Source: Singulisphaera sp. PoT
GTDB lineage: Bacteria > Planctomycetota > Planctomycetia > Isosphaerales > Isosphaeraceae
Direction of reading: 5' to 3'
Assembly: GCF_049331405.1 (NCBI RefSeq)
Contig: NZ_CP186274.1
Span: forward strand, 2,704,367-2,768,366
DNA length: 64,000 nt
Positions within the stretch are counted from its first letter, which is position 1; each line of letters opens with the position of its first letter. The position numbers and the translations under genes are program-made. Of this stretch, positions 2,474 through 61,690 are shown in pieces. The notes beneath the pieces are model-generated. The model was given only the letters and a program-made list of their open reading frames with translations, was not told the DNA's origin and did not search any database.

Positions 2474-5400
2474 ATGTTCACGAAATTCTTCATCGAGCGT
2501 CCGATCTTCGCGAACGTCCTCGCGATCGTCACGATGCTGATCGGCGCGGTCACGATCTTCGTGCTGCCGATCGAGCAGTATCCGGAGATCACCCCCCCGA
2601 CGGTCCAGGTCACGACGACCTACCCGGGGGCCGACTCCAAGACCCTGTCCGACACCGTGGCCTCTCCCATCGAGCAGGAGGTCAACGGCGTGCAGGGGAT
2701 GCTCTACATGTCGTCCACCTGCGCCTCGGACGGCTCGTACAACCTGACGGTGACCTTCGAGGTCGGCACGAACCTGGACATGGCCCAGGTCCTCGTGCAG
2801 AACCGGGTCGCGGTCGCCCAGCCGAGGCTCCCGCAGGAGGTCCAGCGGCAGGGCATCACGACCAAGAAGAAGTCCACAGCCATCATCCTCGTCGTGGCCC
2901 TGACGTCCAAGAAGGACAGCAAGGTCCAGTACGACAGCCTCTTCCTGAGCAACTACGCCACGCTCCGGGTGAAGGACGTTCTGAGCCGGATCTACGGCGT
3001 AGGCGACATCCAGATCTTCGGCTCCAGCAACTACGGCATGCGGATCTGGCTCGACCCCGAGAAGCTGAAGGCCCGCAACCTGACGACGATCGACGTCCTG
3101 ACCGCGATCCAGGAGCAGAACATCCAGGTCGCCGCGGGGCAGGTGGGGGCGCCACCGACGCCGGGCAACCAGGACTTCCAGTACAGCGTGAGGACTCAGG
3201 GGCGGCTCAAGGATCCCGACGAGTTCGGCAACATCATCATCAAGACCAGCTCCGCCCCGGGCAATGAGGGCCTCGGCGCCCGCCTGACGCGCGTCAAAGA
3301 CGTGGCCAGGGTCGAACTCGGTGCCCAGGTCTACGACCAGTGGTGCGACGTCTCGGGCAGGGCCGCCGCGGGGGTCGCGGTCTTCCAGCTCCCGGGGGCC
3401 AATGCTCTGGACGTGGCCGACAAGGTCATCCAGGCCATGGACGAGCTCAAGAAGACCTTCCCCGAAGGCATGGAGTATTCCACACCTTACGATACGACAA
3501 TCTTCGTCCGCGAGTCGATCCACGAGGTCTACAAGACCTTGTTCGAGGCGGGCGTCCTCGTGCTGATCGTGATCCTGCTCTTCCTCCAGGACTGGCGGGC
3601 GACGCTCGTGCCGGCCACGACCGTCCCCGTGACGATCATCGGGGCGTTTGCCGCGATGTTCGCCCTCGGGTTCACGGTGAACCTGCTCACGCTCTTCGGC
3701 CTGATCCTGGCGATCGGGATCGTGGTCGACGACGCCATCGTGATCGTCGAGAACGCCGCGCACCACATCGACCACGACAAGCTCCCGGCCAAGGAAGCCA
3801 CCATCCTGGCGATGGGCGAGGTCATCGGGCCGGTCATCGGGATCACGCTCGTCTTGATGGCTGTGTTCCTCCCGACCGCCTTCCTGGGCGGGATCACCGG
3901 GCAACTCTATCGCCAGTTCGCGCTCACGATCGCGGCGACCGCGGTGATCAGCGCCATCAATGCCGTGACGCTCAAGCCGGCGCAGTGCTCGACGTACCTC
4001 CGCCCCACGCCCGCGAGGAAGAACGCCTTCTACCGGGCCTTCAACGCCGTCTACGACCGCTGCGAGCGCATCTATGTGGCGATTATCACAAGGCTCGTGC
4101 GACATACGGCCATCATGATGCTCGCCTTCGTGGGCCTGACGGTCTTTACGGGCTGGTGGTTCACTCGCCTACCGACGGGCTTCCTGCCGGTCGAGGACCA
4201 GGGGTATGCGATCGTCGGGATCCAGCTCCCGGACGCATCCTCGCAGGACCGCACCCGCGCGGTGGTCACGCAGGTCGAGGAGATCTTCAAGAAGACGGAA
4301 GGGGTCTCGCACTGGGTGATGATCGGCGGCCAGTCGGTCCTGGATCAGACCGTTGCCTCGAACGCTGCGACGATCTACGTCTGCTGGAAGCCTTATGAGG
4401 AGCGGACGACCCCCGAGACGAGCCAGGACGCGATCATCGGCCGGCTCCGCGGCGAGTTCGCCAAGATCGAGGAGGCGATGGTCTTCGCCTTCCCCCCCCC
4501 CGCGATCATGGGGCTCGGCGTGGCCGGCGGCTTCCAGATCCAGATCGAGGACCGCGGCAACGTCGGCCTCAAGGACCTCCAGGACCTGACCGACGACATG
4601 ATCGTCGCGGGCAACGGCCAGAAGGGAGCCGGCGGCCGGGCCAAGCTCCGCTCGCTGAATTCCACCTTCCGCGCGGGGGTGCCGCAGCTCTACGCCGACA
4701 TCGACCGCGTGAAGGCGAAGAGCCTCGACGTGCCGCTCGAGACCGTCTTCAACACGCTGCAATCCTCGATGGGATCGGCGTATGTGAACGACTTCAACCT
4801 CTTCGGCCGGACGTTCCAGGTCCGCGTGCAGGCCGACGACAAGTTCCGGCTCGAGCCGAACGACATCCGCAGGCTCGAGGTCCGCAACCGGACGGGGGCG
4901 ATGCTCCCGATCGGGACGCTCGCCAGCATCCGCGAGGAGCCCGGGCCGCAGATCATCACGAGGTACAACCTCTACCCGTCCGCGTCGATCTCCGGTGAGG
5001 CGGGGGAGGGCTTCAGCTCCGGCCAGGCGTTGACCTTGATGGAGCAGATCGCCGAGGAGAAATTCCCGAGCGGCGTCGGCTACGAGTGGACGGCGATGTC
5101 GTACCAGGAGAAGCGCGTGGGCTCCCAGGCGATCTTCATCTTCGCCCTGGCCGTCCTGCTCGTCTATCTCGTGCTGGCCGCCCAGTACGAGAGCTGGTAC
5201 ACGCCGGCGGCGGTGATCCTGGTCGTCCCCCTGGCTCTATTGGGGACGGTGGCGGCGGTGGCCTATCGGGGGATGGATAACAATATCTACACCCAGATCG
5301 GCATCGTGCTCATCATCTCATTGGCGAGCAAGAACGCGATCCTGATCGTCGAGTTCGCCCGGGAACTGAGGGCCAAGGGGATGAGCATCGTCGAATCGGC

Positions 5401-5632
5401 CGTGCAGGCGTCGAGGCTCCGGTTCCGGCCGATCCTCATGACCTCGTTCGCGTTCATCCTCGGGATCGTCCCCCTGGTGAACGCCCACGGCGCGGGGGCT
5501 GCCAGCCGCCAGGCGCTGGGGACCGCCGTCTTCGGCGGCATGCTCGCGGCGACGCTGCTCGCCGTCTTCTTCGTGCCGGTCTTCTACGTCGTGATCCAGC
5601 GGTTCAGCGAGTACCGGAAGAAGACGAGCTGA
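2474..5632 (+). CDS. RND family multidrug/hydrophobe efflux permease (AcrB/MexB-like)
   Basis: 1052 aa; N-terminus MFTKFFIERPIFANVLAIVTMLIGAVTIFVLPIEQYPEITPPTVQV is canonical for AcrB-type pumps; 12-TM architecture with two large periplasmic loops. Confidence 0.95.
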   Translation: MFTKFFIERPIFANVLAIVTMLIGAVTIFVLPIEQYPEITPPTVQVTTTYPGADSKTLSDTVASPIEQEVNGVQGMLYMSSTCASDGSYNLTVTFEVGTNLDMAQVLVQNRVAVAQPRLPQEVQRQGITTKKKSTAIILVVALTSKKDSKVQYDSLFLSNYATLRVKDVLSRIYGVGDIQIFGSSNYGMRIWLDPEKLKARNLTTIDVLTAIQEQNIQVAAGQVGAPPTPGNQDFQYSVRTQGRLKDPDEFGNIIIKTSSAPGNEGLGARLTRVKDVARVELGAQVYDQWCDVSGRAAAGVAVFQLPGANALDVADKVIQAMDELKKTFPEGMEYSTPYDTTIFVRESIHEVYKTLFEAGVLVLIVILLFLQDWRATLVPATTVPVTIIGAFAAMFALGFTVNLLTLFGLILAIGIVVDDAIVIVENAAHHIDHDKLPAKEATILAMGEVIGPVIGITLVLMAVFLPTAFLGGITGQLYRQFALTIAATAVISAINAVTLKPAQCSTYLRPTPARKNAFYRAFNAVYDRCERIYVAIITRLVRHTAIMMLAFVGLTVFTGWWFTRLPTGFLPVEDQGYAIVGIQLPDASSQDRTRAVVTQVEEIFKKTEGVSHWVMIGGQSVLDQTVASNAATIYVCWKPYEERTTPETSQDAIIGRLRGEFAKIEEAMVFAFPPPAIMGLGVAGGFQIQIEDRGNVGLKDLQDLTDDMIVAGNGQKGAGGRAKLRSLNSTFRAGVPQLYADIDRVKAKSLDVPLETVFNTLQSSMGSAYVNDFNLFGRTFQVRVQADDKFRLEPNDIRRLEVRNRTGAMLPIGTLASIREEPGPQIITRYNLYPSASISGEAGEGFSSGQALTLMEQIAEEKFPSGVGYEWTAMSYQEKRVGSQAIFIFALAVLLVYLVLAAQYESWYTPAAVILVVPLALLGTVAAVAYRGMDNNIYTQIGIVLIISLASKNAILIVEFARELRAKGMSIVESAVQASRLRFRPILMTSFAFILGIVPLVNAHGAGAASRQALGTAVFGGMLAATLLAVFFVPVFYVVIQRFSEYRKKTS

Positions 5633-5651
5633 CCCCGGATCGGATCGAGGG

Positions 5652-5718
5652 CCTTTGACACCGGGGACGTTGCGGGGCTGCCGAGCTTGCTCGGCCCCGC
5701 AGCGACCCGCGTCAAAGG
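5652..5718. terminator. Compound GC-rich stem-loop between convergent genes (RND pump on +, amidotransferase on -); candidate bidirectional terminator
   Basis: Outer inverted repeat CCTTTGAC…GTCAAAGG encloses an inner hairpin GCGGGGC(TGC)CGAGC-TTG-GCTCGGCCCCGC. It sits in the 290 bp gap between two converging stop codons. There is no clear U-tract. Confidence 0.35.
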
Positions 5719-5920
5719 TCGTTCGATGCGCCTATCGGATCAATCGATCTTGAATCGCAAATAGGCGAGTATGAGGAGGGCCGCCGAGGCCGGGATCCTT
5801 CCCGGTTCCGGCGGACTTCATCACGGGATGGCATTTCGAAATGCCGATGGGTTTCACATCGACGCCCCCCTTGCATCGTTGGCAAGGGGCGGGCGTCGGG
5901 TTGTGAAATCCTGGGCATGT

Positions 5921-6685
5921 TCAGCTCGCCTTGGCCAGCGTGAGGGCGGGCTTGGCCGAGTTGGCGTAGTTCAGCGAGGCGGCGGTGAAGGCCTCGATGA
6001 GCTGCATGTCGAGGGAGATGTTCCCCTCGTTCTCGGGGTGCCACTGCACGCCGACGACCCACCAGTTCGCGTCCTTGCCTTCGTAGGCCTCGATCAGTCC
6101 GTCCGGGGCGAGGGCGCCCACGCGGAAGTTCGGGGCGAGCTTGCGGATGCCCTGGTGGTGGTAGCTGTTGACCCGGATCTCTCCCGGGCCGTAGATCTCC
6201 TCCATCCGCGTGCCCGGCTCCATGATGACGGTGTGCCGGTGGGCGCCGCCTTGCGGGTCGCGGTGGGGGATCGAGCGCGGGAGGTCTTCGGGCAGGTGGA
6301 GGTAGATGCCGCCGCCGTTGACGACGTTCAACTCCTGCATGCCCAGGCCGATTCCGAGGACGGGCATCCGCCGCTGCTGGATCAGCTTGCAGAGGAGGCG
6401 GTCGGCCGTCTCGCGACGCTCGGGCATCACGGTGACCGACGGGTGGGGCGACAGGCCCATCTTCTTGGGATCCAGGTCGTCGCCTCCGGTCAGCATCACG
6501 CCGTCGAGGCGGTCGAGGATCGGGGCGAGGTCGTGCTCCTTGATCAAGGGGGGCAGCATGACCGGCAAGGCATTCGCCGAGAGGATGGCGTCGAAGTATC
6601 CGCTGTGCATATAGCTATGCGGAGTGCGGCCCTTGGTGGTGGCGCGATAGTCAGTGTTGATACCGATCAGGGGTCGGTCCTTCAT
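5921..6685 (-). CDS. Class-I glutamine amidotransferase-like protein, gamma-glutamyl-gamma-aminobutyrate hydrolase (PuuD/peptidase C26) family
   Basis: Pattern GINTDY…(D/N)ALP…LTGGDDLDP…P…MPVLGIGLGMQELNV…HHQG… matches C26/PuuD family. The start is taken at an internal Met (MKDRPLIGIN); the long ORF reaches 6760. Confidence 0.75.
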   Translation of the reverse strand: MKDRPLIGINTDYRATTKGRTPHSYMHSGYFDAILSANALPVMLPPLIKEHDLAPILDRLDGVMLTGGDDLDPKKMGLSPHPSVTVMPERRETADRLLCKLIQQRRMPVLGIGLGMQELNVVNGGGIYLHLPEDLPRSIPHRDPQGGAHRHTVIMEPGTRMEEIYGPGEIRVNSYHHQGIRKLAPNFRVGALAPDGLIEAYEGKDANWWVVGVQWHPENEGNISLDMQLIEAFTAASLNYANSAKPALTLAKAS

Positions 6686-7298
6686 GGCGGGCTTCCTTCC
6701 TTGCGTTGGCTTCAGCGAAATCCGTTCGTTGACCGACCTGCCAGATACCCTCGGAGACATCCATGAACTCCGAAGTGGGATGTATCAGGCCAAGCCGGCG
6801 GCCAAGTGCGCGACGATGCACATCCGGATCGCCGCGTCCGCAACTTCCCGGGATCTCCAACCGCAACTTCCGCGACAATCAAGCCGCGACCGATGCGAGA
6901 AGACCGAACCGAATTTTTTTCTCGAGAGGCGTGACGCTAGAGTGGGGACAAATCCGTTTGTTCTTATGGCCTCCTTACCGAAGCAGCGGCCTAAGTCTAG
7001 CCAGCCGAGAATGGCGGCTCAAGGAAATTCACCCGCATTTTCGGCTGTTTTCTCAAGGTTTTCGAAGAGTTGGCCGAGAGGGAAGGCGGGGTGTCAGAGT
7101 GGCGGCGGCTGATGTGACAGCCAGTGTTCAGCCGCCCACCACGAGGGGCCTGAAGGTGACGAAGGCTGCCCATTTTTTTGAGAACGTGGGGATACACCGA
7201 GAGGCCAGGGACACACTTCGCGTCGATTTGAGCTAATCGTGAGCAAGGTCGGATCGGCGTCAAGGCCGATGCAATGTCGGGCACTCCGCCAATGACAA

Positions 7299-7345
7299 CG
7301 CCCTCCCGGTCACGAATGGGCCGGGAGGGCGTTTGGTTCTCTTGG
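7299..7345 (+). terminator. Intrinsic-terminator-like hairpin with an 11-bp perfect GC stem (CGCCCTCCCGG/CCGGGAGGGCG) followed by TTTGGTTCTCTT
   Basis: Read directly from the sequence. The U-tract is better on the + strand. On the - strand it lies ~45 nt after the cytochrome b/c stop and may also terminate that operon. Confidence 0.55.
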
Positions 7346-7376
7346 GTCTGGAGGCCGTCGGGGGACGGGCCCCGGA

Positions 7377-9236
7377 TCACTTCGCGGGGGTGACGGGCTT
7401 GACCGCGACTTCCTCGGTGGGTTCTTCCGCCTTCTTGGAGTTGGGCGCCCCGACGTAATCATCCTTCAGGAAGCGGATGATCATCGTCGTGTCGTTTTCG
7501 CTGAGCTGATCGACGGTGAAGGCGGGCATCCGATCCTTCTCCTCGATGTAGCCGTAGAGCTCGGAAGCCCCCGGCTTGTGGATCATGCGCCTGATCCAGC
7601 GGGTCGAGCCCCAGGCGAAGAGGTTCGGGGAGTCCTTCAGGCCCCCTTCGGTCAGCCCTTCGACGACGTGGCACTTGCCGCAGTCCTCGGTGAACGGCTT
7701 GTAGCCGGGGTGATCGACGATACCTGGCTGGCTGAGCCATTCCTCGGGCGTCGTATCCGGGCCGATCTCGGCGAAGCTCGCCACGAACTTGGCGACGTCG
7801 TCGAGCTCCTTGGACGTGAGCTTGGTGCTCTTCTTCCACTCGGCCATGCCGTCGCAGCCCTTGGCCTTGCCGAAGTAGAGGTCGGACTTCGGATTCTCGA
7901 GCATCCCCCGGAGCCAGGCGTAGGAGCCGAACCCCTTGAGGTCCGAGGCCACCTGCGGGCTATACACGTCCTTGCCGTCGATCTTGGAGAGGATCTGCCC
8001 CTTGCCCGCGAAATAGTGGCAGCTCAGGCACTTGCTTTCGAGGACGGCGTTCCCATGCGTGAACGGATCTCGGACCAAAACATACGTCGCCCCGTCGGGC
8101 GGGACGCCGACGTTGGGGTCGTTCGCGAGCTGGATGGCACGCTGCCTGGAGAGGTCGGCCCGCTGGCGATCGGCCTGGAAGCCCTCGTCGGCCAGGTCCT
8201 CGCGGACCGCCTGGATCGAGAGGAAGACCACGCCCCCCATCAGGCCGAAGATGAACCCGCAGGCGAGAAAGTGGGCCAGCCTCCTGGGGAAGATCCGGTC
8301 GAGCAAGGGCAGGAGCGCCAGGACGGTCACGATCGACGCGGGGATCACGACGGTGGCGATCATCTCGAGCCGACCGGGGAAGACCTTCAGGAGCTGGAAG
8401 AGCGAGAGGAAGTACCACTCGGGCCTTGCCGGGTAGTCGGAGCTCGACGGGTCGGCCGGGGCGTCGAGATTGGCCCCGTGCTGGCTCAGCACGATGGTCA
8501 GCAGGATCCCGAATACCAGGGCGCCCGCCACGGCGTTCATGAAGAACTGCTCGGGCCAGTTCTTGCCCACCGGGAGATGCTCGGAGTTCCTCGCGGGCGT
8601 CAGGCCGTGCCGGCGGGCGAGGGCGATGTGCGCGGTGAGGGTCAGGAACGTCAGCACCGGCAGGAGGCCGACGTGGAGCCCGTAGAACCGCGTGATCGTC
8701 TGATTCCCGTAGTCGGGGCCGCCGATGACGATCTTCTGGATGTAGGGGCCGAGGACGGGGACGCCCCCCATGATGCCCGTGGCGACGCGCGTGGCCCAGA
8801 AGCCCTTCTGATCCCAGGGCAGCAGGTAACCCGTGAGGCTGAACCCGAGGACCAGGAACATGAGCCCCATGCCGAACCACCAGTTGGCCTCGCGAGGGCG
8901 GCGATAGGCGCCGGCGGCGACCACCTGGATCAGGTGCAGCGCCAGCAAGCTCATCATCGCGCCCGAGCCGAAGTGGTGCAGGCCGCGGATGACCCATCCG
9001 AGGGTCATTTTCTCATTGATATAAAAGACACTTCCCCACGCCGTGGACGACGATGGGGAATACGACAGCATCAGGAGCAGGCCGGTCGCGAGCTGCAGCA
9101 GGAAGGTCGTCGACAGGGCCGCCCCGAACACGTACCTGACGCGGGCCCCGCCCTGGATCGGCTCTTCGAGGATCGACTTCAGGGCGTCGCGATAGCCGGT
9201 GCGGTCGTTGATCCAATCGGACAGTGAATTAGTCAA
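7377..9236 (-). CDS. Cytochrome b of a bc-type complex fused to a C-terminal di-haem cytochrome c domain
   Basis: 619 aa; N-terminal 8-TM cytochrome b region with conserved His pairs; C-terminal region has two CxxCH motifs (CLSCHY, CGKCHV). TTG start overlaps the Rieske stop by 8 nt. Confidence 0.9.
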   Translation of the reverse strand: MTNSLSDWINDRTGYRDALKSILEEPIQGGARVRYVFGAALSTTFLLQLATGLLLMLSYSPSSSTAWGSVFYINEKMTLGWVIRGLHHFGSGAMMSLLALHLIQVVAAGAYRRPREANWWFGMGLMFLVLGFSLTGYLLPWDQKGFWATRVATGIMGGVPVLGPYIQKIVIGGPDYGNQTITRFYGLHVGLLPVLTFLTLTAHIALARRHGLTPARNSEHLPVGKNWPEQFFMNAVAGALVFGILLTIVLSQHGANLDAPADPSSSDYPARPEWYFLSLFQLLKVFPGRLEMIATVVIPASIVTVLALLPLLDRIFPRRLAHFLACGFIFGLMGGVVFLSIQAVREDLADEGFQADRQRADLSRQRAIQLANDPNVGVPPDGATYVLVRDPFTHGNAVLESKCLSCHYFAGKGQILSKIDGKDVYSPQVASDLKGFGSYAWLRGMLENPKSDLYFGKAKGCDGMAEWKKSTKLTSKELDDVAKFVASFAEIGPDTTPEEWLSQPGIVDHPGYKPFTEDCGKCHVVEGLTEGGLKDSPNLFAWGSTRWIRRMIHKPGASELYGYIEEKDRMPAFTVDQLSENDTTMIIRFLKDDYVGAPNSKKAEEPTEEVAVKPVTPAK

Positions 9237-9753
9237 GGGAGATCTTCTCCTCGCTCTGGCAGCGGAATCGCGCGAACTTGACCATCACGACGGGGTCGGG
9301 GTCGGGCGAGACCTTGACTTCGAGGGTGTCCATGGGGCGGGGGGGGACGTCGTTCATCGGCTTCCCCGAGAATTCGAAGCGGCTGGAGTGGCAGGCGCAG
9401 TAGAACGTGGTGCGATCGCCCGAGAGGTTGATCGCGCAGCCGAGATGCGGGCAGGTCGAGCTGAAGGCGACGACCGGCTCCTTGGCGTCGTCCGGCTGAC
9501 GGACGAGCCAGACGGCCCCGATCGGCTCCTTGGGGTACTTCACCCAGGCGTCCAGGCGTTCCTCGACGACCGGCACGGCGACGGGCACGCCCACCTTGAG
9601 CTCGTTGAGCTTGGCCATCGGCTGGAAGGCCCCGGCCTTCGACTTCTTGCCCAGCGGGTCGAGCAGGTAGGCAACTCCTGGAATCGCGAGCGCCATCGCG
9701 GCGAGATTGCCCAGCAGTATCGTGCCGTAGCGGTAGAGATTGCGGCGATTCAT
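9229..9753 (-). CDS. Rieske [2Fe-2S] subunit of the bc-type complex, TAT-signal (NRRNLYRYG)
   Basis: Boxes CPHLGC and CACHSSRF are the Rieske cluster ligands. The twin-arginine motif precedes a TM helix. The start is placed at the internal Met before the RR motif; the ORF extends to 9855. Confidence 0.85.
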   Translation of the reverse strand: MNRRNLYRYGTILLGNLAAMALAIPGVAYLLDPLGKKSKAGAFQPMAKLNELKVGVPVAVPVVEERLDAWVKYPKEPIGAVWLVRQPDDAKEPVVAFSSTCPHLGCAINLSGDRTTFYCACHSSRFEFSGKPMNDVPPRPMDTLEVKVSPDPDPVVMVKFARFRCQSEEKISLD

Positions 9754-13045: not shown

Positions 13046-13471
13046 TTACTCCAGGTTCAACTCGCCCTGCCGACGATCCAGCTCATCCTGCTCGCGGATG
13101 TACTGCCGCACCCGGGCCTCATCAAGGCCCACCGTGCTCACGCAATAACCCGTCGCCCAGAAATGCAGGCCCGTCATCCGGCGCTCCTTCAACAGCTCAC
13201 GATGGATCCGGACGGCGCTCTTGCCCTTCAGGAACCCGATCGTGTTCGCCACGCTATACTTGGGCGGTATGCTCAAGCACAGGTGGATGTGGTCGGGCAT
13301 CGCGTGCCCTTCCAACAGATCGATCCCGCGTTGACGGCACAATTCCCGAAGGATCGGGCCGATCTGATGCCGAAGCCTTCCGTAGAAGACTTTGCGGCGG
13401 TACTTCGGTATGATCACGACGTGGTACTTGCATTCCCACCGGACATGGGAAAGGCTCTGCCATTCGTGCAT
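13046..13471 (-). mobile_element. tnpA: IS200/IS605-family Y1 (HuH) transposase TnpA, possibly a REP-associated tyrosine transposase (RAYT)
   Basis: 141 aa; HuH motif HIHLCLSIP; catalytic Tyr region WATGYCVSTVG; size and layout are typical of TnpA_IS200. It is flanked on both sides by GC hairpins. Confidence 0.85.
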
Positions 13472-13669: not shown

Positions 13670-14065
13670 TTACGAATGGGATTTCCGGTATCCGAGCTTC
13701 GAGGCGACGCCAAGGATCTCGTTGGAAGTGGGGTGTACGCGACCGGATTGGCTCTTGAATCGCTGCATGGCGTTCATGAACTCAATCTCGTCGTCGGTGT
13801 ACTGCTTCTCGAAAGTCGTGGGATCGACGCGTCGTCGTCGCCCGGGTTTCGGGGCCTTGGCGGTAGCCTTCTCGGCGATGGTGTCGACCGAGATTTCCGC
13901 GCAGCAATCGGCTTCGGTGATGTCGGCTTCGACCTGCATGGGATGCTCTTGGATCAGAAGTTTCTCGGGTGGAACAACGCGATCGAATTTTGAACCCTTG
14001 GGATTCGTCTCTTCGGGAGACGCCATGGAGTTCTCCAGGTCAGGGAACCAACGCCGCTCGGTCAT
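13670..14065 (-). CDS. Hypothetical protein (131 aa)
   Basis: The ORF has reasonable composition. No homology recognised. It is adjacent to the mobile element. Confidence 0.3.
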   Translation of the reverse strand: MTERRWFPDLENSMASPEETNPKGSKFDRVVPPEKLLIQEHPMQVEADITEADCCAEISVDTIAEKATAKAPKPGRRRRVDPTTFEKQYTDDEIEFMNAMQRFKSQSGRVHPTSNEILGVASKLGYRKSHS

Positions 14066-14592
14066 TGGGGGCGGGGTTCCGACGCTTCAATTGCGGGCCG
14101 GGAGGCGAGCTTCCGATGTCTGCACCTCGTCGACGTTGGTGACGTGCCGGTTCCCTTGGCTCGTTGTTCTAACTTTGCTTAGGACACGGAGCCTAATCTG
14201 TCAAACCGGTATAACGCGATCGCCAGGCGTCGAGGCGCCGAAGCTCAGGCCTTCTATCCGGTTCAGTGCGATGCCCGGTGCGACGATTCCGGAGTTTGGC
14301 TCACGTCCGATCCGTGTGGCATAATGAAAAAGACAGCGTGGATCGATCGCGGTCCACGCCTCCTCGGTGCGTATCGATCGCGAATGCGTCGCCTCATGGC
14401 TATTGGTTCCGTTGCGCGTTTTGCGGCGCCCAGTTCAACCGGAGAAACGTCGCGCGGAATGGGGAGATCGGTACTCGTCCGTTTCGATCCGATCACCTTG
14501 TGAACCTGCCACCTGTGGCGTAGATTTGAGATAACTCAGCCAAGCGCCCGTTCCGGTCCGAAAGCCGGTCTCCTTTCTTGAGAGGAACTTAC

Positions 14593-16317
14593 ATGTCCCG
14601 AACCGCGCGAATGTGGAAAGGCGTCGGGCCGTTGACGCTGGGCGGCCTGGTCCTATCCGGCGCCCTCTGCGGGGCCGCCGAACCCGCGTCGCTGCCCGAC
14701 CAGTTGAACATGCTGGGTCGCCAGGCCCTCGCCCAGGGCGAGAAGGATCACGCGGCGACGTTCTTCCGTAAAGCCCTCGCCCTCGACCCGGCGAACACCG
14801 AGGCCCGCAAGGCCCTCGCCCGTGTCGGCAAGGTCGAGAGAGTCGCCCTCCAGGATCCCGCTCCCGAAGCACCTCCCGCCGACGCGACGGTGGCCCCGGC
14901 TCCCGCACCCGCGGATGAGCCCGTCCCCGCCTCGCCCCCGCTCGAGAACGCTCCGGTTCTTGGCAATGCCCATCGGCCCCAGGCCACCATCGAAGAGGCC
15001 GAGCGCACCGCGGAAGTGATGCGGCAGCAGTTGACCGCCGACATCCGGCAGCGCGAGCAGGTCGCCCGCGATCAGGTCACGGCCGGCCAGCCCGAAGCCG
15101 CCCTCAACACCCTCCGGCTCGCCCAGACGGTGATCCGGTCCTCGACCGACGTCGCCGAGACGACCCGGAACGCCCTCGATCGCGAAGTCCAGGCCCAGAT
15201 CCTCTCGACCGTCAGGGCCGAGGAACAGATCGTCCAGGATCGCGCCGAGAAGCTCCGCGTCGAGGCCGCGGCCGAGCAACAGGTCCGCGCCCTGGATCTG
15301 CTGACCCGCAACCACGACACGGTCAGCACCATGATGATCCAGTTCGACAGCCTCATGGCGCAGGGCCAGTACAACGTGCTGTTCAACGGCGGCACCGGCG
15401 ACATCATCGCCACGACGGCCCCGTTCTACGAGGCTCGTCTGCTCGCCCAGAAGGCCCGAGCCCTGGTGCCGAACGACCCGACCCCCCGGGCCGGCGTGTT
15501 CGTCTCCTCGACGACCGGCTTCCTCGCCCAGGAGATGGCCTACGAGCAGTTGAAAGAGTTCCGGTTCATGCTGTCCATGCAGGACGCGGAGCGAGCCGCC
15601 GTTCCGTTCCCGGACACGATCACGATCGAGTACCCCGACGCCGAGATCTGGCGGACTATCTCGGAGAAGCGGATCAAGCGCTACGGCAAGGCCGTCGACC
15701 TGCTCGACCGCGACCCGAAGACGAAGAACATCATCGAGAAGCTCAATGAGCCCATCACGATGTCCTTCCCCAACGAGACGCCGTTCGAGGAAGTCCTCAA
15801 GTACATCAAAACGGCGACGACCGGGGCCAATGACTCGGGCATCCCGATCTACGTCGATCCCGTCGGCCTGCAAGAGGCCGAGAAGACGATGTCCTCGCCG
15901 GTCACGCTCGACCTCGAAGGCGTCCCCCTCAAGACGACCCTGCGGCTGATCCTCAAGCAGCTCACCCTCACCTACACGGTGAAGGACGGCATGCTGACGA
16001 TCACCTCGGAGAACGCTGAGGACACTCCGACCGAGATCCGCGTCTACCCGGTCGCCGACCTCGCCATCATCCCAATCTCCCTCATCCGCGGCGGTGGCGG
16101 TGGTGGTATGGGCGGCATGGGCGGCGGTATGGGCGGTGGCATGGGCGGCGGTGGTATGGGTGGCATGGGCGGCGGTGGTATGGGCGGCATGGGCGGCGGC
16201 ATGGGTGGTGGCGGCGGCATGGGGATGATGTCCGTCCCGCCTCGCGACCCGAATGCGGCCGATGAAGCGTCCACGCCCCCAAGCACCTCCAGCTTCGCGG
16301 AAAAAAAAAGCAGCTAG
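14593..16317 (+). CDS. Secreted protein: signal peptide, N-terminal TPR-like region, secretin/TonB-type N-terminal (STN-like) beta-domain, and a C-terminal Gly-Met-rich low-complexity tail (GGMGGMGGGMGGG…)
   Basis: The signal peptide reads MSRTARMWKGVGPLTLGGLVLSGALCGAA. The segment ITMSFPNETPFEEVLKYIKTATTGANDSGIPIYVDPVGLQEAEKTMSSPVTLDLEGVPLKTTLRLILKQLTLTYTVKDGMLTITS resembles secretin-N/STN domains. The ORF ends at TAG immediately after an A9 run. Confidence 0.75.
   Translation: MSRTARMWKGVGPLTLGGLVLSGALCGAAEPASLPDQLNMLGRQALAQGEKDHAATFFRKALALDPANTEARKALARVGKVERVALQDPAPEAPPADATVAPAPAPADEPVPASPPLENAPVLGNAHRPQATIEEAERTAEVMRQQLTADIRQREQVARDQVTAGQPEAALNTLRLAQTVIRSSTDVAETTRNALDREVQAQILSTVRAEEQIVQDRAEKLRVEAAAEQQVRALDLLTRNHDTVSTMMIQFDSLMAQGQYNVLFNGGTGDIIATTAPFYEARLLAQKARALVPNDPTPRAGVFVSSTTGFLAQEMAYEQLKEFRFMLSMQDAERAAVPFPDTITIEYPDAEIWRTISEKRIKRYGKAVDLLDRDPKTKNIIEKLNEPITMSFPNETPFEEVLKYIKTATTGANDSGIPIYVDPVGLQEAEKTMSSPVTLDLEGVPLKTTLRLILKQLTLTYTVKDGMLTITSENAEDTPTEIRVYPVADLAIIPISLIRGGGGGGMGGMGGGMGGGMGGGGMGGMGGGGMGGMGGGMGGGGGMGMMSVPPRDPNAADEASTPPSTSSFAEKKSS
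16081..16250 (+). repeat. Tandem nucleotide repeat (ggc ggc atg ggc ggt ggt atg … units) encoding a (G2-4M)n tail
   Basis: Read directly. The complementary strand yields a spurious PPPMPPP ORF. Confidence 0.8.
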
Positions 16318-16457
16318 AGGCGGCCAAGGCCAAATCTGCGGGTAATACGGCTTCTAAACAAGCCAAGAAACAGGGTCAGCGGGGGTCAACCTCCGCTGAT
16401 CCTGTTTCCGTTTCCCCATCCCCCAAGTCGCGCAAACCCGGCCAGAACGACCCGCTC

Positions 16458-17663
16458 ATGGTCGTGCCGGCGAAGCCAGGCTCCAGCAACTCGGGTCTCC
16501 TCGAGATCAAACCGGGTGCGGGCACTGCCACTCATAAGGCCGCCAGCAAGAATGCCGCCGCGACCGATCAGTATTGGCTTAACTATTACAAGACCCACGA
16601 AGAAGAGCCGAAGGACCTGAGGGAGAAGGTCTCGCTCCTGAATGTGAACAAGAAAACACAGGATGTCGAAGGCGCCCTCAAGGGGTATCTCACCTATCAT
16701 TCCAAGAATGCCGAGCCCTGGATGTATGAGGCCCTCGCCCTCGCCATCAAGATGAACAAGGGGAAGGATTCCGACATCCAGTCCGCGCTCGGCCATGCGG
16801 CCGACCTGGCCGAGGCGAGCCAGAACCCCAACTACCTCGTCAGCGTAGCCGACCTGATGTTCATCCACGGCTACGACCAGCGCGTGGGCAAGCTCCTCGA
16901 CCAGGCGATGGACAAGATCCCCCATCGCGGCGAGCCGATGATCATGTCGATCAACCTCGCCCAGCGGACGAAGGACCCGAAGCGCATGGCGACCTCGGTC
17001 GACCGGCTCCTCTCGCTCGGCTGGCCTGGCATCGACGACCAGATCCGTCGCGACGCGAGGCAACAGGTCGAGACCCTCGCCAAGTCCCTCCGCGACGAGG
17101 GGCAAAACGAGGAAGCGGACGCCATGACCCAGCGCCTGACCGACTCGGAGACGCGAGATCTCTTCGTGCGGCTGAGCTGGTCGGGAGACGCCGACCTAGA
17201 CCTCGCCGTCGACGAGCCCCTCGGAGCCACCGCGCACTACCAAACGCCCCGCACGGTCTTCGGCGGCTCGATCGTCCGGAACGGCTACGGCAAGCACCCC
17301 GAAGAGGTCTACGTCTGCCCCAGAGCCTTCGACGGCCAGTACACGATCCGGGTCGAGACGATCTACAACAACCCGGAAAAGCCGGCGCTCCAGGCGACGA
17401 TCGAGGTCTTCACTCACGAAGGCGCGAGCGACGAGAAGAAGGAGACGAAGACGATCAACATCGGCAGCAAGTCGCCCGCCCCGCTCGTCGTCACGCTGAA
17501 GGGGGGCCGCCGCAAGGAGGTCCTGCCGTTCCTGGCTCCGACCCCCATCCCGACGCCCGTCATCGCCTCGCAAAAGAAGGCCGATGTCGCCAAGGCGCAG
17601 ACGAAGACCCCCGCCACTCCCAAGGCCGGCAAGCCCGATCAGGGCAAGGCCAAGCCTCGTTGA
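16458..17663 (+). CDS. Hypothetical protein (401 aa as called). Its reading frame is open upstream to ~16266 and may be the C-terminal part of the preceding gene via a -1 shift at the A9 run.
   Basis: Alpha-helical N-terminal half, beta-rich C-terminal half, Lys/Pro/Thr-rich tail. No RBS-like sequence before the annotated ATG. Confidence 0.55.
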   Translation: MVVPAKPGSSNSGLLEIKPGAGTATHKAASKNAAATDQYWLNYYKTHEEEPKDLREKVSLLNVNKKTQDVEGALKGYLTYHSKNAEPWMYEALALAIKMNKGKDSDIQSALGHAADLAEASQNPNYLVSVADLMFIHGYDQRVGKLLDQAMDKIPHRGEPMIMSINLAQRTKDPKRMATSVDRLLSLGWPGIDDQIRRDARQQVETLAKSLRDEGQNEEADAMTQRLTDSETRDLFVRLSWSGDADLDLAVDEPLGATAHYQTPRTVFGGSIVRNGYGKHPEEVYVCPRAFDGQYTIRVETIYNNPEKPALQATIEVFTHEGASDEKKETKTINIGSKSPAPLVVTLKGGRRKEVLPFLAPTPIPTPVIASQKKADVAKAQTKTPATPKAGKPDQGKAKPR

Positions 17664-17712
17664 TGACGAGGGTCGGTTTGATTCTCGGGACGAACCGCCG
17701 CGGGGGCCTCGA

Positions 17713-18864
17713 TCAGAGGACCCCAGCGGTGATCTCCGAGAGGGCGGCGATGAAGGTCTCGATCTCCTCGACCGTCGTGAACGGCCCAGGGCTGAGACGC
17801 AAGGTCCCGTCCGGGAACGTCCCCAGGGCCTGGTGGGCGTAGGGCGAACAGTGCAGGCCGGGCCGGACGGCGATCTCGAAGCTCGCGTCGAGGATCGAGC
17901 CGAGGTCCTGCGGCGTGAGCGTGTCGGGGACGATCAGGGAGAGGGCCCCGACGTGCGTGGCCGGATCCCAGCGCCCGGCGATGCTCCAACCTTCGGCGGC
18001 CTCCGCCCAGGCGACCACGCGCTCGAGCAGCGAGACCTCGTGGAGCCGGAGCGAGTCGACCCCGCGCTCGGCGACCCAGGCGATGCCGGCGGCCAGGCCG
18101 GCGACCCCCAGCACGTTGGGAGTCCCCCCCTCGTAGTAGTACGGCAGGAGCGTCGGCTGCGTCTCGCTCGACGAGTCGCCGCCGGTGCCCCCTTCGCGCC
18201 AGGTGCGGAGCTTGGCCGCGCGAGGCCCGACATACAGCGCCCCGGTCCCCGTGGGACCGTAGAGGCACTTGTGGCCGGGGAAGGCGAGCAGGTCGATCGG
18301 AGTGGCCTTCAGGTCAATCGGCACGACCCCGGCTGACTGGGCGGCGTCGACGAGGAACAAGGCGCCCGACTCCCGGACGATCGGCGCGATCGCCTCGATC
18401 GGCTGGACGGTCCCGAGCACGTTGGAGGCATGCGTCAGGGCGACGAGCGTCGTCTTCGGCGTGAGTGCAGCCTTGATCGTCTCGGGGTTGAGGTAACCTC
18501 GCTCCGAGGCGACTCGCGTCAGGGTGATGACGCCGGCCTTCTCCAGCGCCCGCAGTGGGCGGCTCACCGAGTTGTGCTCGAGGTCCGACGTGATGACATG
18601 GTCGCCGGGGTTCACGCTCCCCTTGATCGCCATGTTCAGGCCGTCGGTGCAGTTGAGCGTGAAGATCCAGCGCTCGGGGGTCTCACCTCGGAAGAACTGG
18701 TTGAGCGCGTGTCGCGTGTCGTCGAGCGTACGCTCGGCCGAGACCGCCATGCGGTGCCCTGCGCGTCCGGGGTTCGCCAGGCTCGTGCGGGCGAACTTAT
18801 CCAGGGCCTGATAGACCGGCTCGGGCTTGGGGAAACTGGTCGCGGCGTTGTCGAGATAGATCAT
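17713..18864 (-). CDS. Class-V aminotransferase-fold cysteine desulfurase (Csd/SufS/IscS-like)
   Basis: PLP-lysine region FPGHKCLYGPTGTGALY; active-site Cys loop GLHCSPYA; motif MIYLDNAATSFP at the chosen start. It is the last gene of the riboswitch-controlled operon. Confidence 0.85.
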   Translation of the reverse strand: MIYLDNAATSFPKPEPVYQALDKFARTSLANPGRAGHRMAVSAERTLDDTRHALNQFFRGETPERWIFTLNCTDGLNMAIKGSVNPGDHVITSDLEHNSVSRPLRALEKAGVITLTRVASERGYLNPETIKAALTPKTTLVALTHASNVLGTVQPIEAIAPIVRESGALFLVDAAQSAGVVPIDLKATPIDLLAFPGHKCLYGPTGTGALYVGPRAAKLRTWREGGTGGDSSSETQPTLLPYYYEGGTPNVLGVAGLAAGIAWVAERGVDSLRLHEVSLLERVVAWAEAAEGWSIAGRWDPATHVGALSLIVPDTLTPQDLGSILDASFEIAVRPGLHCSPYAHQALGTFPDGTLRLSPGPFTTVEEIETFIAALSEITAGVL

Positions 18865-27173: not shown

Positions 27174-28022
27174 ATGCCGACGTTGCCCCAATCGATGGTC
27201 CTTGGGAGCGGACGGGCGAAGGCGTGGATCCTGTTCGTGGTGGGGGTCCTGTTCACCCTGTCCCTGATGCCGGCACCGGCCGCCCGGGCGCAAGAGCCCG
27301 CCAAGGACGAGGCGGCGAAGGCCGCCGCTGCGCCCGCCCCCGCCGCGGCGGGGAGCACAAGCGACGTCGCCCCCCCCAAGACCAAGTCGATGCTCCGCTG
27401 GGCGCTCGAGGCGTCGGGCCCCATCGGCGTCTTCCTGCTCTGCCTCTCGGTCTACTTCACCTCGGTCGTCATCAAGCTCTTCCTGGAGATGCGGGTGAGC
27501 GAGAACGTCCCGCCTGCGCTCGTCGAGAAGATGGAGGCGGCGATCCGCGACCGCAAGTTCCAGGAGCTCTACGACGCCTGCCGCGACAACGAATCGTTCC
27601 TGGCCAAGGTCGTCCGCACGGGCGTCGCCAACCTGCCCAACGGCCGCCCCGAGGCCAAGGAAGCCATGAACGCCGTGACCGACGAGATCGTCACCGGCAT
27701 GGAATCCAAGATCAGCTACCTCGCCATCATCGGGCAGCTCGGGCCGATGATCGGGCTGGTCGGCACGATCTGGGGCATGATCATGAGCTTCCAGGAAATC
27801 GCCACCGCCGCCGGCTCTCAGCCCAAGCCCGAGAAGGTGGCCGAGGGGATCTCGACGGCCCTCTTCATCACGCTCGAAGGGGTGGCCCTGGCCGTCCCGG
27901 CGATCTTCTTCTTCTCCTTCTTCCGGAACCGGATCGCGACGATCGCCATGGAGGTCACCAAGGTGGCCGACCGCACGATCGCCTCGCTGGTCCAGGCCGC
28001 CAAGCAGTCCAAGACCGTCTGA
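27174..28022 (+). CDS. MotA/TolQ/ExbB-family proton channel (cassette 1)
   Basis: Hallmark region GPMIGLVGTIWGMIMSF…EGISTALFITLEGVALAVPAIFFFSFFRNRI. The start is taken at an internal Met; the ORF extends to 27093. Confidence 0.9.
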   Translation: MPTLPQSMVLGSGRAKAWILFVVGVLFTLSLMPAPAARAQEPAKDEAAKAAAAPAPAAAGSTSDVAPPKTKSMLRWALEASGPIGVFLLCLSVYFTSVVIKLFLEMRVSENVPPALVEKMEAAIRDRKFQELYDACRDNESFLAKVVRTGVANLPNGRPEAKEAMNAVTDEIVTGMESKISYLAIIGQLGPMIGLVGTIWGMIMSFQEIATAAGSQPKPEKVAEGISTALFITLEGVALAVPAIFFFSFFRNRIATIAMEVTKVADRTIASLVQAAKQSKTV

Positions 28023-38852: not shown

Positions 38853-39179
38853 GGCAGACCCTTGTTGTCGTTCTGGTGATGCGTGACTCGGCGGCCGGAC
38901 ACCGCGAATCGCATTCGCGGCTGCTAATCCGACCGAAGGCCAGCCGATCCTCGCGACGGGGGGGGGTCGAGGAAACGGTGCGACATGAATGCACCCATAC
39001 GTCGGGTGCATTCCAAGGTTAGCCCGCTCTCGAAGGTTATTCAAGGAGAAGTTCGGGGTGGCTATGACGAATGCCGTAAAGTTTCCTTAACCCCGAGAGC
39101 GGTCACGAGTGCCGATATAGGCCCCCATCGATGAACGTCCAACGGGACCCTTGACATCCAATTTCGAGGACATGATCTG

Positions 39180-47512: not shown

Positions 47513-47619
47513 TCCCGGCGCAACCCACTCTCACGCCCGAGAACGCGACGGAGGCAGTGCACGCCGGGAAACCGGCCTGCCTGCCTCCGCGTTCGTTTCG
47601 CGTTCGTCCTCGGTGCTGA

Positions 47620-61610: not shown

Positions 61611-61655
61611 ATGGCGACGCGAACTCATGAGGGTTCATACCCTCGCTGACACGAG

Positions 61656-61690
61656 CATGCCGAGCCTAGCCGCTCGGCATGTTCGTTTCC
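61656..61690 (+). terminator. secA intrinsic terminator: perfect 10-bp stem CATGCCGAGC/GCTCGGCATG, 6-nt loop, then TTCGTTTCC
   Basis: Read directly, 45 nt after the secA stop. A second small hairpin GAGGGTTCATACCCTC lies between the stop and this stem. Confidence 0.55.

Follow-up and report, generated by a model that had tools for sequence, protein, structure and literature searches.

A nine-adenine run conserved across Isosphaeraceae is a probable programmed recoding site joining a predicted exported TPR/STN protein to a downstream reading frame

Conserved recoding is rare in bacterial cellular genes outside mobile elements and phages, with dnaX, prfB and a handful more as the known cases. 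Here we describe a probable further case in Singulisphaera sp. PoT (Planctomycetota; Isosphaeraceae), found in a 64,000-nucleotide (nt) stretch of contig NZ_CP186274.1 (positions 2,704,367 to 2,768,366 of the forward strand) that we refer to as the window and whose numbering is used throughout. At this locus a run of exactly nine A's (A9; 16301..16309, + strand) lies at the end of an open reading frame, ORF1, for a predicted exported TPR/STN protein, and the -1 frame across the run continues into a second, downstream reading frame, ORF2. A stable RNA hairpin follows the run at a distance.

Several described systems resemble parts of this arrangement. The dnaX gene of T. thermophilus is, like ORF1, a cellular, non-mobile gene with a sense-strand A9, two isoforms sharing their N-terminus, and non-productive frames that end soon after the run (PMC1088944). 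It differs in the direction of the switch, as templated A9 gives the long form there and slippage the short one, whereas here the short form comes from the templated run and the long one would come from A10; the gene family is also different and the phylum unrelated. To our knowledge, no distal hairpin has been described for dnaX. The sites of E. coli dnaX and of IS3/IS1-type insertion sequences (IS) share with our locus a Lys-codon heptamer, a -1 shift, an orfA-orfB style fusion and a close 0-frame stop. Those sites, however, combine A_AAA_AAG or A6G with a downstream hairpin or pseudoknot at 5-9 nt and, often, a Shine-Dalgarno (SD)-like element upstream, whereas our locus has neither stimulator, its run is nine long, and its sole conserved structure lies 39-68 nt off. 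Poly-A also joins two ORFs in IS transposases and in the Mg-chelatase cluster (A9-A11; Baranov 2005; Antonov 2013), but the members of those families differ in run length, whereas here the run is fixed at nine across the family and sits in a single-copy cellular gene. In the Roseiflexus IS630 element (Penno et al. 2015) an RNA hairpin is likewise tied to a polymerase slippage motif; that hairpin, however, stands directly 5' of the motif and acts on the RNA-DNA hybrid, whereas ours stands 39-68 nt 3' of the run and therefore cannot act on a polymerase while it is on the run. Finally, the hairpin resembles those of intrinsic terminators and attenuators in its long G+C-rich stem and its position 31-60 nt after a stop codon, and differs from them in that the U-tract is weak or absent in many species and in that it lies within the coding sequence of the recoded frame.

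Targeted literature searches returned no published description of recoding of this gene in planctomycetes. GeneTack (2013) took in only two Planctomycetes genomes, and the first 300,000 characters of a 2016 recoding review do not contain the word stem 'planctomyc'. As far as these searches reach, the locus would be the first such case found in Planctomycetota.

ORF1 (14593..16317, + strand) likely starts at ATG 14593, because its orthologs begin MSRTARLWKG; TTG 14578 is its mechanical start, giving an ORF span of 14578/14593..16317. The predicted protein opens with a signal-peptide-like N-terminus and continues through TPR repeats and a coiled region to an STN-like domain (~15748-16032), after which come a Gly-Met low-complexity repeat (16087..16230; RGGGGGGMGGMGGG...GMGMM) and the tail ...FAEKKSS*; TPR matches were found in it, and the STN match was weak. 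The run falls in the last codons of ORF1, with 16294-16317 reading TTC GCG GAA AAA AAA AGC AGC TAG, so that the 0-frame stop (TAG, 16315..16317) comes two codons past it. A TGA at 16263..16265 closes the -1 frame upstream; from 16266 that frame is open to a TGA at 17661-17663 and reads ...GKKKQLEAAKAKSAGNTASKQAKKQGQRGST... / ...GKKKQLEAAKAKSAGN.... The A9, the FAEKKSS-TAG end and the -1 frame open from ~16266 had been pointed out in a preliminary description made from the sequence of the window, and all are present. That description also named A_AAA_AAG as a slippery heptamer. A slippery heptamer does exist, but the one in ORF1 phase is A_AAA_AAA (16302..16308), which would be relevant if the shift is ribosomal, and A_AAA_AAG is phased with the -1 frame. 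The first ATG of the ORF2 frame (16458..16460), the mechanical start of a 401-amino-acid (aa) ORF, lies inside a disordered linker and is not conserved. As the description had it, the second ORF has no obvious ribosome-binding site, and by inspection no SD-like (GGAGG-like) motif precedes ATG 16458. Within the window, which is 66% GC, A9 is the sole A/T run of at least 8, and outside the run the Lys codons of the two ORFs are AAG 52 times and AAA 10 times (AAA ~14-16%).

A scan with one genome per species yielded 80 loci, of which L001-L065 come from Isosphaeraceae and include eight cultured isolates (three Singulisphaera, Paludisphaera soli, two Tundrisphaera and two Tautonia). Sixty-one of the Isosphaeraceae loci cover the junction, and all 61, the eight isolates among them, have exactly nine A's, finished isolate genomes included. 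ORF1 orthologs are 565-616 aa long with 43-76% identity, and almost all end ...[E/Q]KKSN*. Nearly all loci share one phase, in which the 0 frame reads [C/G]AA AAA AAA AGC AAC TGA and the -1 frame reads AAA AAA AAG CAA CTG (KKKQL) and continues into ORF2. In L044 the run stands in another codon phase and in L049 it is followed by C; both have nine A's. In the 536,650 nt of these loci we counted 61 A9 runs and only 14 other A/T runs of at least 7 (four A7, four A8, two T7, three T8 and one T10). In L031 and L033 the run's first A is also part of a -1-frame TGA, and the shift therefore has to occur within the run. Frame stops and hairpins were tallied on 39 clean loci, in every one of which a 0-frame stop lies 1-2 codons after the run, with varying stop codon type.

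Homopolymers are classic sites of sequencing error and phase variation, and a few database proteins (P0004, P0007, P0068 and P0069) look fused. The split might thus be an artefact or accident, whether a homopolymer error, a pseudogene or a DNA-level phase-variable A9/A10 switch, and the preliminary description had itself listed sequencing or assembly error as an alternative. Such an error is excluded as the source of the split, because the run is identical in 61/61 genomes, which come from differing technologies and include the finished isolates. No in-frame A10 allele was found, and no phase-variable repeat-length polymorphism was encountered, in these 61 genomes. Full-length and junction-spanning searches of 5.8 billion protein clusters found no in-frame fused Isosphaeraceae-type protein. 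The four long database proteins switch frame within the Gly-Met repeat and not at the A-run; P0004, P0007 and P0068 bear ncbi/ena source tags like those of error-prone MFD metagenome-assembled genomes (MAGs), P0004 is on contig_87992, the contig of L009, and P0068 has several further out-of-frame stretches. ORF2 is also strongly conserved and folds with confidence in a structural model. An artefactual or accidental split is, on this evidence, barely credible.

In many of the MFD long-read MAGs, the Gly-Met repeat or ORF2 contains indels that lead to spurious fused or truncated gene calls. The indel-bearing set comprises the four proteins named above and loci L009, L010, L021, L026, L047 and L056-L065, and in all of these MFD loci A9 is still read as nine. 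We also scanned metagenome DNA for run-length variants with AAAAAAAAN{0,3}GCAACTGA. The pattern was too unspecific, and the matches listed were taken up by AT-rich organisms, with none in a GC-rich context.

Another alternative is that ORF1 and ORF2 are independent genes, with translation of ORF2 beginning at an internal start codon (in the window, ATG 16458) and A9 kept for some other reason, such as a Lys-rich ORF1 tail. Gene callers do annotate ORF2 separately everywhere, at 334-547 aa, and since SD motifs are weak in general among planctomycetes, a missing ribosome-binding site is not decisive. The annotated ORF2 homologs, however, start at unrelated positions. The first ATG/GTG/TTG past the run lies anywhere from codon 5 to beyond the linker, varying by species, and in four species (L005, L029 from P. 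soli, L035 and L054) no such codon precedes the folded domain. The preliminary description had held that separate genes, with an independent ribosome-binding site and start for the second, would speak against a fusion; there are two ORFs in the Isosphaeraceae, but no conserved independent start.

The linker between the run and the folded part of ORF2 (16308..16562 in the window; KQLEAAKAK..., predicted to be disordered) is constrained as a coding sequence. It is 67-102 codons long, has no -1-frame stop in any locus, and differs in length between relatives only by multiples of 3. Substitutions over the whole linker number 198/183/366 at codon positions 1/2/3. In codons that precede any start codon and lie outside the hairpin they number 133/114/201 (p ~8e-7, where the compared pairs are related and p is only indicative), and in the Singulisphaera trio the counts are 6/4/21, 5/4/16 and 6/3/12. 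Judged by these patterns, the -1 frame of the linker is evolving as a coding frame, and this holds upstream of every possible ORF2 start too, which argues against an independent ORF2.

In an AlphaFold model of ORF2 (mean predicted local distance difference test score, pLDDT, 80), residues 1-33, counted from the ATG, are disordered, 36-230 form a TPR-like helical repeat and 233-347 a beta-sandwich. The folded part corresponds to 16563..17498 and is followed by a disordered Lys/Pro/Ala-rich C-terminal tail (17499..17663) that ends at the TGA at 17661-17663. Foldseek of this model against the PDB gave generic TPR proteins only and no functional assignment, and Pfam gave no match to ORF2. A hydrophobic N-terminal segment is found in ORF1, in fusion proteins of Pirellulales described below, and in standalone ORF2-type proteins (P0154, L069 and L074), with Kyte-Doolittle 15-residue maxima of 1.75-2.9, whereas the window ORF2 reaches at most 0.39. 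ORF2 alone thus lacks the signal-like segment of its standalone homologs, another point against its independence. If the ORF2 module works outside the cytoplasm, it would presumably get there only when fused to ORF1.

Homologs of the two halves do occur joined. Comparison of orthologs had been suggested as a way to tell fused from split genes, and we found that Isosphaeraceae are always split at A9, with the same frame relation, and that Pirellulales have a single ORF. Both halves are in one ORF in the Pirellulales proteins P0077 and P0078 and in loci L066, L070-L073, L075 and L078-L080. P0077 and P0078 are 1361 and 1375 aa long and have an additional N-terminal vWA domain. A conceptual fusion of the window ORFs is collinear with P0077 (residues 13-500 with 283-789, and 667-983 with 906-1221), and the Pirellulales junction peptides, e.g. 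FAVKDELRL and FSVKDDLNAL, match the trans-frame peptide FAEKKKQLE in position. We also identified a standalone ORF2-type paralog, P0154 (L201 4001-5494), which carries a signal-like N-terminus of its own, gives only a faint DUF2135 hint in Pfam, and has neither an A-run nor the hairpin. Its sequence, ...NPFAEKKRQLMEIG..., includes PFAEKKRQL in one frame, written CCG TTC GCG GAG AAG AAG CGG CAG CTC. Because P0154 encodes this peptide in one frame, the junction peptide is real protein sequence, and because a gene that needs no shift writes the same peptide with AAG, A9 is not a requirement of the protein sequence. P0154 looks like a fossil of the fused reading frame. Given the unconserved starts, the constrained linker, the missing signal-like segment and these AAG codons, we consider it highly improbable that ORF1 and ORF2 are independent genes.

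The STN-like domain also occurs C-terminally on other proteins (P0079-P0120), often in more than one copy and often with a Gly-Met tail behind it. Its partners in the same lineages include sigma-70-family factors, Ser/Thr kinases and WD40 proteins, which suggests that the domain is a shared periplasmic or envelope-anchoring module. We considered whether the C-terminal KKSN of ORF1 orthologs is a sorting motif of STN/Gly-Met proteins and rejected this, as the paralogous sigma factors and kinases end otherwise, e.g. in GGGFR.

We conclude that A9 is very probably a conserved programmed recoding site that gives rise to a short isoform and an ORF1-ORF2 fusion. Standard decoding would yield the short protein, with ORF1 ending two codons past the run. 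In a fraction of expression events a shift to the -1 frame inside the run would instead produce a fusion of ~1023 aa (...SSFAEKK-KQLEAAK...), with a predicted window-type junction peptide of ...STSSFAEKKKQLE. The fusion would place the ORF2 module, its TPR-like repeat and beta-sandwich, behind the export signal of ORF1, an architecture that is the same as that of the single uninterrupted Pirellulales ORF. The preliminary description had proposed that a slip fuses the two ORFs into one gene or a pair of isoforms, and the conserved A9, the lack of a conserved start, selection on the linker and the Pirellulales fusions support that proposal. Two points weigh on the other side: the fusion protein itself is predicted from genomic sequence, and the statistical tests were made on phylogenetically related sequences, so their p-values are overstated.

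Two main routes could bring about the shift, and both give the same fusion product. RNA polymerase might add one A, and the resulting A10 mRNA would then be read normally into ORF2, with A8, A9 and A11 mRNAs all ending within a few codons and giving the short form. Alternatively, the fusion might arise by -1 programmed ribosomal frameshifting, with a tRNA-Lys pair slipping on A_AAA_AAA (16302-16308) into KQL..., or by ribosomes sliding on poly(A). Poly-A heptamers are established frameshift sites, and in E. coli reporters the efficiency of poly-A shifts was 10% at A7, 40% at A9 and 63% at A11 (PMC3711429). An in-phase X_XXY_YYZ heptamer is present in all of our loci, the phase variant L044 included, and the 0-frame stop is close by. 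For the polymerase, T. thermophilus dnaX slips on A9, and in many bacteria selection against A/T runs sets in at nine, the length at which such runs become slippage-prone (PMC1088944).

Several features of the locus fit a ribosomal shift less well. The run is fixed at nine though seven would be enough for the ribosome, and it is unchanged when the phase (L044) or the flanking base (L049) differs; the two A's outside the heptamer are invariant in 61 genomes. RNAalifold on 36 sequences (region -60 to +130) predicted no conserved structure 5-9 nt downstream of the run, and no Roseiflexus-type hairpin just upstream of it. By inspection, the upstream consensus ...GCGCCTTCnTGC is without a GGAGG-like element, and no SD-like element was seen 5' of the run. 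The one conserved hairpin, described below, is 39-68 nt off, with variable spacing. Lastly, the +1 frame is reachable only from A8 or A11 transcripts and is never entered by a -1 ribosomal shift, but it is still closed 3-14 codons after the run (median 5) in 39/39 clean loci, at several positions; in the window its first stop is the TAA at 16343..16345. Elsewhere in ORF2 the same relative frame is open for a median of 61 codons, with a stop within 13 codons at only 15% of control positions.

The locus thus combines features of a slippage site, namely a conserved A-run, access by one added base to an ORF with no conserved start and fast closure of the other frames. Because the run length is invariant, no stimulator is nearby and the +1 frame is also closed, we modestly favour polymerase slippage from A9 to A10 over -1 ribosomal frameshifting. 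The preliminary description had named both mechanisms, and both fit, with dnaX-type ribosomal frameshifting fitting somewhat less well. Against slippage stand the in-phase A_AAA_AAA heptamer of every locus, L044 included, and ribosome sliding on poly(A) as a third possibility; moreover, the early +1 stops could be in part a by-product of the conserved -1 peptide, e.g. CTT GAT. We therefore keep fusion by a ribosomal shift or slide in view as possible, if rather unlikely.

Downstream of the run, the window encodes a very stable RNA hairpin (16367..16408, + strand) with a 19-bp stem and a 4-nt loop, beginning 57 nt past the run and followed by CGTTTCC. The 46-nt window that holds it folds at -35.9 kcal/mol and is the most stable of its size in the whole 64 kb (mean -13.8, standard deviation 4.5), and the 130-nt region has z = -5.4. 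The hairpin is conserved in all 39 clean loci, with stems of 14-20 bp and energies of -18 to -44 kcal/mol. Its main stem begins at a variable spacing, 39-68 nt past the run and 31-60 nt past the ORF1 stop. Pairing was kept in 93.7% of cells in alignment A2 (75.8% after shuffling), with compensatory changes in 10/11 pairs, and in 90.5% of cells in alignment A3, with compensatory changes in 13/15 pairs. In 500 shuffles the observed values were never reached, and slid controls were 27-51% paired. In the linker peptide, the motif RDQRG..PAGPG corresponds to the two arms of the hairpin. The window peptide differs there (QGQRGSTSADP) yet pairing is kept, and the constraint therefore acts on the RNA.

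A covariance model recovered the hairpin at its expected + strand position in ~56 loci, 17 of them outside the seed, with scores about twice those on the - strand. With the same model it was absent from the Pirellulales fusions and from the standalone paralog, whose linkers have no comparable stem; the hairpin occurs only at recoded loci. It matched no Rfam family; a search with 16150-16550 returned only sub-threshold microRNA noise.

We considered several functions for the hairpin. For a classical frameshift stimulator it stands too far from the run and at too variable a distance, and for a slippage stimulator it lies on the wrong side of the run. A role in ending an antisense transcript was also rejected, given that only the window has a T-rich stretch on the opposite strand and that + strand scores are about twice those of the - strand. 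Its position after the ORF1 stop and its likeness in form to gene-end hairpins of the window suggest instead that it is a terminator or 3'-end element for ORF1, which would be melted by a ribosome translating the -1 frame. Near-perfect G+C-rich hairpins with short T tails occur elsewhere in the window at 7291-7336, 61645-61690, 17689-17734 and 47545-47590, and the first three of these are at gene ends, either between convergent ORFs or ~38 nt past the end of a long ORF; they may be a guide to the form of terminators in Singulisphaera sp. PoT. The terminator reading is weak in other respects. The U-tract is weak or absent in many species, many orthologs having only CGTTTC or no T-run at all, and although GTTTCCGTTT in the window was flagged by a terminator scan, the number of sites flagged was not above that in shuffles.

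In one MAG locus, L020, there is a tandem second copy of ORF1 (5402-7276; region 5402-7400) with no ORF2 behind it. In this copy the run has decayed to GAAAAGAAAAGC and the hairpin is kept. As evidence on the role of the hairpin this duplicate is weak, because the copy is partly 100% identical to the first and the genome is a nanopore MAG; the identity may reflect gene conversion or an assembly artefact.

One speculative possibility, to which we give little weight for now, is that the A9 run and the distal hairpin form a single device that couples recoding to transcription attenuation. On A9, A8 or A11 transcripts the ribosome would stop just past the run, and the hairpin would fold and either end or stabilise an ORF1-only mRNA. 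After an A10 slip or a ribosomal slip, the coupled ribosome would pass over the hairpin and block its folding, and the polymerase would complete the ORF2 part. Such a device, if real, would set a fixed ratio of short to long isoforms, a logic not described for any known recoding site, and a functional coupling of this kind could set the locus apart from those sites.

The locus bears on annotation, as hundreds of genomes now list ORF2 as a hypothetical protein of its own, with arbitrary starts. It also offers three natural states to compare, the in-frame fusion of Pirellulales, the standalone protein with a signal peptide and the A9 recoding of Isosphaeraceae, and this comparison can show why a lineage swaps a single ORF for a two-isoform system. 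Conservation across the family, with easily cultured type strains among its members, makes the model directly testable, and the invariant run, the closed non-productive frames and the hairpin are handles with which to separate polymerase from ribosomal slippage and to probe a coupling to termination.

Upstream of ORF1, the lone sigma-70-like promoter match in 14000-18200 lies at 14296-14325 (TTGGCT-18-CATAAT with an upstream TG), ~270 nt before the ORF1 start. About 1.1 kb upstream of ORF1, on the - strand, is a 141-aa ORF (13046-13471; MHEWQSLSHVRWECKYHVVIIPKYRRK...), which we take to resemble an IS200/REP-associated Y1 tyrosine transposase. Long G/C homopolymers also occur in the window, namely C10 at 4492-4501, G9 at 38958-38966, G8 at 9339-9346 and C8 at 27370-27377.

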